From Chara braunii (lineage: Eukaryota > Plantae > Charophyceae): a stretch of 64,000 nt of DNA. This document shows, piece by piece, positions 16,169 through 18,451 of this stretch (positions are counted from its first letter, which is position 1; every line of letters begins with the position of its first letter). The DNA lies in assembly GCA_003427395.1 (NCBI GenBank), contig BFEA01000010.1, positions 2,621,202 to 2,685,201 on the forward strand, given 5' to 3'. The translations under genes and the position numbers were made by a program. The notes beneath the pieces are model-generated. The model was given only the letters and a program-made list of their open reading frames with translations, made no database searches and had not been told where the DNA came from.

Positions 16169-18451
16169 CTAGTCTATCATGCTAAGGTTCAATTGCCTAT
16201 ACAACTGAACCCTGAATCCATCCTTAGCCTTCTCAACAAAGTTCCCTTCCCTGTCAATGAGATTCTTGTTCTCATCCAACTTTACAAAACCATTTTCCTT
16301 ATCAAACTTAAATCCTGGACACTCTTCCCTCAGATGCATCCCTTTCATGCAATACCAACACAACTTTTTGCCCTCACTTCTTGACTTTTTGGCAGAATGA
16401 CCTGGAATCGCTGCCTCCTTCTCTCCACCTACTTCCAACATCTCAGAACAAGGTCTCTTCTTACTATCTCCTGATTCGCCTTCATTAAAAGACTTTGTAA
16501 CAATGTCAGATGTCAGTATCTGAACCAACTTGTTAGCAGAAGCTGGAATGACAGTAGGTTGATCGTCGTTCTCTCCTCTTTATCCCAATACTTCTCTGCT
16601 TACTCCCTCTGGCCTTGTTCTGGTGCATGAAGTGTTCCTGTAATACTCCTGATCTCAAACCCAAGTTCGTCGTTCCATTCAACTATTTTTGTAGGCATCT
16701 CTGCTCCTCCTTCTTGACTAACCTTCCTGAGAGCCTCCATCTCCTTTTCCTGCTTATTGACCTTCCCTTCCAGCTTGCCAACTTCCTTGTCCAACTTTTC
16801 TCGTTCAACCCTCTCTTTTTCCACTTCATTGTTCTTACTATCCAGGGCAATGTTCAACGCCTCCACTTGCTTCTTAAGCTCTTGCTGTTCTTCCCTTACC
16901 TTGCTCATTTCAACCCTCATGCTTTCCACTTCTTTTTCCATCTTTTCCACCTGTGCATCCCTGCTTTCTTCCCTTTTTCTCAATCCCTGGATCTCCTTCA
17001 GGATTTCAGGGATGTGACTTGCTACTCCCTGATTGAGTAATTCCTCCTTCTCTTTTACCATTTCTTGGAGTTCTTTAATCGAAGCCTCCATCTTTCCATC
17101 CTCGTCATTCCCTCTCTGACTCCTTCCTGCTCCCTCCAATTTCTCAGCTACCTCGACTCCTCCTTCAAGGAGCCACTCACAGTCATCCCGAAGCAGCTCA
17201 TGCAGCCGGATCAGCTTATCCAGGTCTGACCGTAGCTTAGAGCCCCTGANNGATTCAATTAACAAGATCCTCNNAATCTTCTCACTCCAANGGGCATCNG
17301 CAGNCAACTCATCTTCCTTCATTGATGCAACCATTTTGTCCCTCCATTCCTTATTTTCTTCCTCTCTCTTTTCTCTCTCTTCCTTGGTCATCCTCCTTGA
17401 TCCTGGTTCCCTGAGAGGATTCTCAGCGGTCGCCATTCCAGTCTCCTTTTCTGTTTGATTCCTTTCTTCTTCCTCTTCTTCATTCTCCTTCACGCCCTCT
17501 TTCCCCATTTCTATCCTCCACTTCCTTCATCCATTCTTTCCCACTCATCGTATCCGATTCCTTCTCTCCTTCTTTTTTCCTCTCCTTCTTCTCTTTTGTG
17601 CCATCTTTTTCTCTTGCTAAATCCTCCACTTCCTTCTTCCCTTCTTCTTCTCTCATCATGTCCTGTTCCCTCTCTTCCTCTTCTTCTTCCTTGCTTTGCT
17701 TCTTCTCCTTGCCTCTTCTCTTCTCTTGCATTCCTGCGGTCCTGCTTGCTGATCCACCTCCCTTCTGAATGGTTGTCCTTTTCCATACAAGCACCTGCCT
17801 GAGGGGCACATCATCTTCGTCAATTTCTTGTCAACCTTTCTTTTCCAGCTTGTCTCCTCTCCTTCCGATCCACAACCCCTGCTCCTGAAGTAACTGTTTT
17901 TTCTTCTGTCTTTGTATGGCCAGAGTGTAGGTTCTTCTGAATTTGACAAGAAACCCTCCCCAAGTATCTGACTCCTCTTTGATCTTCCTCATACTCTCAT
18001 ATTCCATGGGGTCCACTCTTGCCATTACTTGTTCCAGCTTCTCTTCTTCCTTCCACCCCTTCCTTTCTGCATACAGAGTCAGACTGTCCTCGAAATCCTC
18101 CACATTTGTTCCATAAAAGATTATATCATCCTTGATCCCGTCTCTCCTCAGGTCCCCATACTCAACCCACATTTCTGTCTTGAATGTCATCCATCCCAGG
18201 CAGTCGGTGGTAATTTCTTCAATCTTTAATTGACACTCCCCTACACCATTTACTTTGGACAACATGGTTGGGGTATCCCATTCCCACCCGAACGCGTGAT
18301 CCTCGAACTCCCTTAGGAACAACCTCAAATTGTCCCCCTTCTTGTAGATCGGCATTCCATCTGCGTCCCTGGTTACCCGCCGTGATCCCCGTCGCCGTTC
18401 CTTGCCAGAGGCTGGCCTGGAAGGCCCCGCCACCCCTCCCTTCCGTGTCAT
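16169..18451 (-). pseudogene. E2 ORF-C: post-integrase gag-like protein (two capsid-N-like repeats, E/K-rich coiled coil, CCHC knuckle), frameshifted
   Basis: ORFs 17831-18484, 17480-17809, 16600-17508 and 16169-16528. The segment FYGTNVEDFED..EEKLEQ..WGGFLVKFRRTY resembles the E2 gag segment FQGERVSHWL..EK..WIEFKKGMQRKY. Knuckle CWYCMKGMHLREEC. Confidence 0.7.

Follow-up and report, generated by a model that had tools for sequence, protein, structure and literature searches.

Additional genes behind pol are common in plant retrotransposons, and according to the accessible part of one account it is in most cases not known where they come from or what they do (PMC7264820). The 64,000-nucleotide stretch of Chara braunii DNA that was analysed here, called the window in the following, raises this question for a Ty3/gypsy LTR retrotransposon on its minus strand, in which a further open reading frame, ORF3, lies behind the integrase. 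What is this gene, where does it come from, and what might it do for the element that carries it? We will show that ORF3 is very probably a second gag-derived gene, and that its origin can in this case be read: it goes back to the gag of the element itself, probably by way of a duplication and a remodelling. Its function can be approached with less certainty, and several explanations have to be compared.

The host element is 33,086 bp long and has gag, protease, reverse transcriptase (RT), RNase H and integrase in this order between two LTRs, which is the Ty3/gypsy layout. Both LTRs are on the minus strand and run from TG to CA, the 5' LTR at 35680..41626 (5947 bp) and the 3' LTR at 8541..14430 (5890 bp). 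The order of the parts is a 71-bp tandem array, three extra frames called U3, U2 and U1, gag with its capsid (CA) and CCHC knuckle, protease, RT, RNase H, integrase and finally ORF3, from which 1.7 kb without protein matches lead to the 3' LTR. For comparison, the largest LTR element in a plant survey, in the part of it that was available, measures about 24 kb (PMC6317226).

The canonical gag with the aspartyl protease (22050..25253, minus) and the pol region (18607..22050, minus; Pfam RVT_1, RT_RNaseH, Integrase_H2C2, rve and SH3_Tf2-1) are both broken in the window copy. Its gag-pol contains nine stops in frame and roughly six changes of frame, and the element is to be called dead. The true capsid is encoded by the frame at 25253-24588, whose predicted structure matches the capsids of Ty1, Ty3, Arc, RSV and Copia, and the CCHC knuckle of this gag is at 23797-23756. 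The two LTRs are 90-96% identical. It is important to note that the N positions follow the same pattern in both (13271-13438 and 40452-40619), which suggests that gaps were filled from collapsed copies and makes the LTR identity a poor date. The flanks of the element do not match each other as a target-site duplication (TSD), the copy being old or nested and the assembly gap-filled. No tRNA-type primer-binding site was seen adjoining the 5' LTR (35655-35679), and a self-priming match there covers 9 nt only and is unconvincing.

ORF3 occupies 16169..18451 on the minus strand. Its ATG at 18451 lies 156 bases beyond the integrase stop (18609-18607), and its own stop is at 16171-16169; a location behind the integrase stop on the same strand had been stated in the preliminary description of this locus. 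The window copy is broken, which that description had not mentioned, by stops at 17833-17831 and 16582-16580 and by frame changes near 17510 and 16610, and seven N are found inside it at 17250-17304. Gene models of other copies cross each of these breaks, P0002 and P0003 the first stop and frame change and P0010 the last, and ORF3 is therefore one gene, with a length of roughly 760 codons as counted from the coordinates. Its decay is no worse than that of gag-pol, with 2 stops in 2.3 kb compared to 9 in 6.6 kb. The annotation CBR_g4263, the gene model of this very locus and the best match of the window in protein searches, joins the protease to ORF3 via predicted introns and was rejected as a genuine fused gene.

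Following a basic N-terminal tail, the protein begins with two capsid-like repeats of ~70 residues each (both minus strand). Repeat 1 (18149..18364) has four helices and is supported by profiles and a match to the N-lobe of Arc; repeat 2 (17912..18133), supported by profiles and structure matches, has four helices plus a trailing one. Next comes a charged low-complexity linker of E and K (17340..17830, minus; E+K 41% in its first part), which varies between subfamilies, and then a helical block conserved in subfamilies I and II (17130..17340, minus), with matches of 31-35% identity to subfamily II models. A coiled coil follows at about 16723..17097 (minus). It emerges from a heptad scan, with a hydrophobic fraction of 0.7-0.9 at the a/d positions compared to 0.08-0.2 elsewhere, while generic coiled-coil matches in Pfam stay below the cut-off. 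The long E/K coiled coil of the preliminary description is therefore real as regards the coiled coil, and a part of that stretch is instead the low-complexity linker. The CCHC knuckle, also noticed earlier, is found at 16360-16319, and together with a post-knuckle motif it forms the end of the gene (16169..16360, minus). The four ORF3 fragments of the window contain no transmembrane helix, the peak hydropathy over 19 residues being 0.96, which agrees with the earlier impression that no such segment is obvious. An identity as env was rejected for this reason, despite the sense position behind pol.

The similarity of the two repeats to the capsid is hardly visible in single sequences. Repeat 1 and repeat 2 are not detectably related at this level (an equally high score is reached in 1825 of 2000 shuffles), and their similarity to gag is weak (BLASTP E 0.044, with 10/2000 and 88/2000 shuffles as high). 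Family profiles were built from 26 ORF3 rows and 24 gag rows, leaving out two ORF3 rows in the case of repeat 1, a single gag row in that of the capsid's C-terminal domain (CTD) and any row with fewer than 30 residues in the respective slice. When these profiles are compared using hhalign, repeat 1 matches repeat 2 with P 97.5 and E 5.4e-12, repeat 2 matches the N-terminal domain (NTD) of the element's own CA with P 91.8 and E 7.4e-7, and repeat 1 matches the same domain with P 44.7 and E 2.2e-4. The score was in each of the three comparisons reached by 0 of 30 column shuffles. With a shallower alignment the match of repeat 1 to the CA-NTD is not significant (3/60 shuffles). Against the CA-CTD profile, repeat 2 is at chance level (P 0.1, 19/30 shuffles) and repeat 1 aligns over 14 columns only (P 2.8). 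The tandem repeats resembling the element's own capsid N-terminus, as proposed in the preliminary description, are thus borne out by the family profiles, the identity to the own CA-NTD being only about 20%.

The ORF3 fragments of the window gave no capsid family in a Pfam scan, and PDB sequence searches yielded nothing. A single member of the ORF3 alignment (1/26) matches Pfam Retrotrans_gag, possibly via its own gag part. In a protein language-model atlas, the look-alikes of ORF3 are retrotransposon Gag clusters, with a top match of 0.92 and with 10/10 of the best named matches in one clan. A recent duplication of gag at the DNA level was also considered and rejected, the blastn match being no longer than 23 bp (E 0.54).

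The AlphaFold model of the tandem domain consists of two four-helix lobes with a mean pLDDT of 81.6. Using this model, Foldseek ranks Arc, PNMA2 and the HIV capsid first, with no E below 0.001, and an exhaustive structure alignment against 48,161 chains places capsid or capsid-derived proteins in 24 of the top 25 rows. The best match is that of the predicted repeat 1 to the Arc N-lobe (Z 8.9, rmsd 2.1, 65 of 67 residues), where it should be pointed out that, when helical bundles are compared, a Z of 8-9 falls below what the tool itself regards as safe. A fold search in BFVD yielded weak rows only, led by metavirus ORF1, Gag and caulimovirus coat proteins. Judged by the predicted structure, the ORF3 repeats carry the capsid four-helix fold as in Arc, Ty3 and Copia, and the fold similarity anticipated in the preliminary description is thereby found.

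In many chains the modelled repeat 2 aligns best to C-terminal domains, for example that of PEG10 with Z 6.7. This is to be expected if the NTD and CTD of capsids are paralogues that arose by duplication, as described in the available part of PMC8458377. The structure does not separate the two domains here, and the NTD-NTD assignment rests on the sequence profiles. ORF3 would represent a natural example of capsid-domain duplication, and it is by such an event that the retroviral capsid has been suggested to have acquired its two lobes.

The other end of ORF3 can be traced to gag as well. In hhalign, the knuckle taken together with the next 40 residues matches the own nucleocapsid region with P 96.7, and the match persists with P 87.7 when the knuckle is removed (0/40 shuffles). 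Among the intact ORF3-type knuckles, that of the window ends 10 residues past a shared motif and 6/7 others end 10-12 residues past it; in gag, unlike in ORF3, the chain continues past the knuckle motif towards the protease. The capsid-like repeats and the homology of the knuckle end together indicate that both ends of ORF3 derive from the lineage's own gag. ORF3 shares the CCHC nucleocapsid element with canonical Gag, and differs from it in position, as Gag is encoded upstream of protease and pol whereas ORF3 lies behind pol and ends after the knuckle.

We now consider the distribution of the gene. A search with the gag CA retrieved 34 Chara gene models, and ORF3 pieces are present in 23 of these, always at or after the end of the gag/pol pieces (alignment overlap up to 38 residues); the copy evidence consists of automatic gene models with invented introns, and the count is partly self-referential, as the reference set held segments from nine of the counted models, whose link to the window gene was either direct or ran via one another. 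Of the 11 models without ORF3, several just break off inside gag or pol. A profile search with ORF3 among 1.84 billion representatives gave 36 matches, all of them Chara braunii gene models, and a tblastn search of metagenome and viral contigs, which is sensitive to close patterns only, gave no relatives. Dozens of 'hypothetical' Chara gene models can in this way be recognized as pieces of a 33-kb element family.

By eye, the ORF3 models form about five subfamilies. The start, the domain order and the end of the gene are constant across them, with repeats that are as little as 11-25% identical, while the middle is poorly conserved. The mean identity is 33% for ORF3 compared to 53% for CA, the N-terminal part of ORF3 diverging faster than CA. 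The two genes have descended together: the pairwise identities correlate (Spearman 0.55 for 97 pairs from 15 sequences, 3/5000 permutations, kin not being independent), and the ORF3 and gag trees show the same groups with P0057 as the sole exception. In the P0057 model a subfamily IV gag is joined to a subfamily II ORF3, and in P0013 a second ordinary CA piece (residues 937-1069) stands behind the protease; each is either a chimeric model or a recombinant.

Independent LTR or TSD remnants around ORF3, which would have pointed to a separate insertion, were looked for, and between integrase and 3' LTR there is no LTR piece, TSD-like sequence, long direct repeat or pol remnant. Together with the position across subfamilies, the agreement of the trees and an end shortly past the knuckle, which differs from that of a nested gag-pol, this leads us to reject a nested element as the source of ORF3. 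The preliminary description had placed a second gag-like gene in the env position, and this is now supported by the profiles, the predicted fold and a position behind gag/pol that recurs in 23/34 models and about five subfamilies.

A splice-acceptor-like site, with a pyrimidine tract and AG, is predicted at 18477..18500 (minus), with the ORF3 ATG following 25 nt later. An ad hoc score puts it at rank 2 of 1828 AG sites, and rank 3 precedes U1 (26378). The top-scoring site of the internal region is at 15900-15925 (minus), in the 3' untranslated part past ORF3, and no protein homologue was found near it. Gene predictors place a splice just ahead of the ORF3 start in several subfamilies, and judging from these sequence signals ORF3 is likely made from a spliced message. 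In three poly(A) RNA runs, a region of 16.6 kb received 105, 638 and 107 reads and one of 2.8 kb received 1, 69 and 3, mostly partial, under 95% alike and in the deepest run on both strands. Spliced joints and any meaningful depth of sense reads are absent from these runs at their very low depth, and the runs are uninformative. With almost no reads and no joints, the splicing and expression of ORF3 remain predictions.

The anatomy that results is that of two lattice-type heads, a flexible charged linker, a predicted oligomerising stalk and a Gag-type, predicted RNA-binding tail. The following scenario would account for it. The gag gene would have been duplicated to the 3' side of pol, where the copy would have lost the C-terminal domain of CA, doubled the N-terminal one and gained a coiled coil. 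The ORF3 message would result from splicing that uses the acceptor at 18478, and the protein would oligomerise through its coiled coil. Its knuckle could then bind the element RNA (about 27 kb, corresponding to the element minus one LTR), with the tandem domains contacting or shaping the Gag capsid lattice. We infer, as the simplest beneficial role, that ORF3 is an accessory Gag paralogue which would act as a scaffold of the particle or hold the ~27-kb RNA to the Gag shell. We assign a probability of roughly 0.4 to this role, which would be one candidate explanation for the packaging of retrotransposon RNAs of very great length. A separable 2.3-kb gene that is kept by all sampled subfamilies should benefit its carrier. 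The ~20% identity of the heads to Gag, on the other hand, strains direct co-assembly as much as it strains a poisoning of the lattice.

The broader proposition, that of an element with two Gags in which a re-engineered gag in the env slot either is a genuine structural subunit that enables the shell to take up the ~27-kb RNA or acts as a weapon against sister subfamilies, has in our estimate slightly better than even odds. If true, either version would amount to a novel means by which the capsid of a retroelement is built or policed.

The scaffold or particle function ranks first, and the second place is taken by an element-encoded restriction factor, whose stalk-borne capsid-like heads would poison the Gag lattices of the own family or of competing subfamilies. 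We regard this as doubtful, although a number of observations speak for it. Capsid domains without a CTD dimer partner on an oligomerising stalk recall the logic of Fv1 and TRIM5, and restriction factors based on the CA-NTD are raised as a possibility in the available part of the same source (PMC8458377). The faster divergence of ORF3 relative to CA fits a conflict, and several subfamilies coexist in the Chara genome, so that restriction would more plausibly be directed at sister subfamilies than at the element itself. Against it are the low identity of the repeats to the own CA-NTD, with no CTD match by profile, and the considerations that a separable self-inhibitor of 2.3 kb should be lost from a prolific lineage and that lattice poisoning needs no conserved RNA-binding end.

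The known restriction factors can be compared with ORF3 in this context. Ty1 p22/p18 are, like ORF3, element-encoded capsid-fold proteins apart from full-length Gag. In the accessible parts of the sources, p22 is made from a subgenomic RNA and overlaps gag, with whose C-terminal half it agrees in full (PMC8458377, PMC13709905), and Drt2 is encoded by the host, at a locus that shares 91.5% identity with the CTD (PMC13709905). Both are near-identical copies of the CA-CTD in which few substitutions, three interface changes, abolish the activity (PMC13709905). ORF3, in contrast, is a separate gene behind pol, is NTD-like and doubled with ~20% identity, and has a coiled coil. It would thus provide a testable, CA-NTD-based counterpart to the Ty1 factors. 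Fv1 shares with ORF3 the derivation from Gag, a predicted oligomeric stalk and a potential for lattice binding; it is a murine host gene directed against incoming retrovirus, as far as described in the available text (PMC8458377), and a sequence link to ORF3 was neither found nor expected.

Another option is that ORF3 is a regulator of RNA trafficking similar to Rev or CERV, which would oligomerise on the unspliced RNA via its knuckle and move it out, either from the nucleus or through the giant cell, with the heads as Arc-like peptide-binding adaptors. The predicted acceptors before ORF3 and U1 would mean that unspliced RNA must escape splicing, the best structural match is the peptide-binding N-lobe of Arc, and the N-terminal tail is basic. 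There is also a precedent in CERV of Cer1, an accessory protein of an LTR element which is made from a spliced mRNA and which the available part of PMC10309623 does not describe as capsid-derived. The splicing at the present locus is predicted only, however, and we consider this option unlikely, below the restriction factor.

It is also conceivable that ORF3 assembles into its own Arc-like particle or lattice, the two repeats being the lobes of a complete capsid. In the model both lobes align in order to the complete capsids of Arc, dArc and PNMA2, over 132-144 residues and with Z 8.4, repeat 2 matches CTD structures, and NTD and CTD are themselves duplication products (PMC8458377, accessible part). 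The orientation of the modelled lobes does not superpose with that of the whole capsids (rmsd 11-16), though, the profile match of repeat 2 is to the NTD and not the CTD, and no protease site or pol was found downstream of ORF3, which renders this rather improbable. The domesticated Ty3/gypsy Gags Arc/dArc, PNMA2 and PEG10 are the best structural matches and have, like ORF3, two similar four-helix lobes; they are host genes with NTD plus CTD, whereas ORF3 lies inside a mobile element and has a coiled coil after its lobes. Mammalian Arc has a coiled coil too.

That ORF3 has no function and is what remains of an element that was nested or recombined here and then carried along is highly improbable, because for all the breaks in the window copy and an expression that is predicted only, the stretch between integrase and 3' LTR lacks remnants and the start, domain order and end are held constant at such low repeat identities.

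With the extra ORFs of plant and rotifer elements, such as the env-like genes of Athila/SIRE and the rotifer ORF3s, the Chara gene has in common that it is in sense orientation, behind pol, family-wide and fast-evolving, and the elements share a large size, long LTRs and tandem arrays (PMC7264820, PMC6317226 and PMC5408684, as far as available). The rotifer ORF3s have spliced messages, coiled-coil types included, and in the accessible text no gag or capsid domain is listed among their types (PMC5408684). Nor does one occur among the 12 domain rows given for plant extra ORFs with matches in at least 5 elements from 80 species (PMC6317226, part available). In contrast to the env-like ORFs, the Chara ORF3 has capsid-type domains and no transmembrane segment. 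At most it functions in the manner of p22 or Arc without belonging to either group, and it is not an env.

Neither a second gag behind pol nor a description of this Chara family came up in the literature searched; its layout might be described in the Chara genome paper or its supplements. These reportedly mention a Chara-specific Gypsy group.

Some further features of the window should finally be mentioned. The extra ORFs U1, U2 and U3 upstream of gag (25595..28626, minus) belong to no Pfam family. U1 and U2 are a paralogous pair of ~240 residues each, 36-50% identical, with a possible third, decayed copy (25595-27900, minus), and homologues of this type are present in the gene models P0002, P0004 and P0045. 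U3 (28120-28626, minus) is a small basic/acidic ORF that is also found in the P0006 model, with 57% identity over 51 residues. The 71-bp tandem array in the 5' internal region (31040-33332) has about 11 plus 2 copies.

At the start of the window, positions 1-446 are 96% identical to the LTR-adjacent internal sequence at 35229-35673 and abut a different sequence, which indicates the beginning of either a sister element or another LTR at this point. On the plus strand, two small ORFs that are alike by eye (49308-50247) lie upstream of another gag-like frame (51936-52478), and a second Gypsy element, with its RT at 55201-55950, is located between direct repeats at 52388 and 58311.
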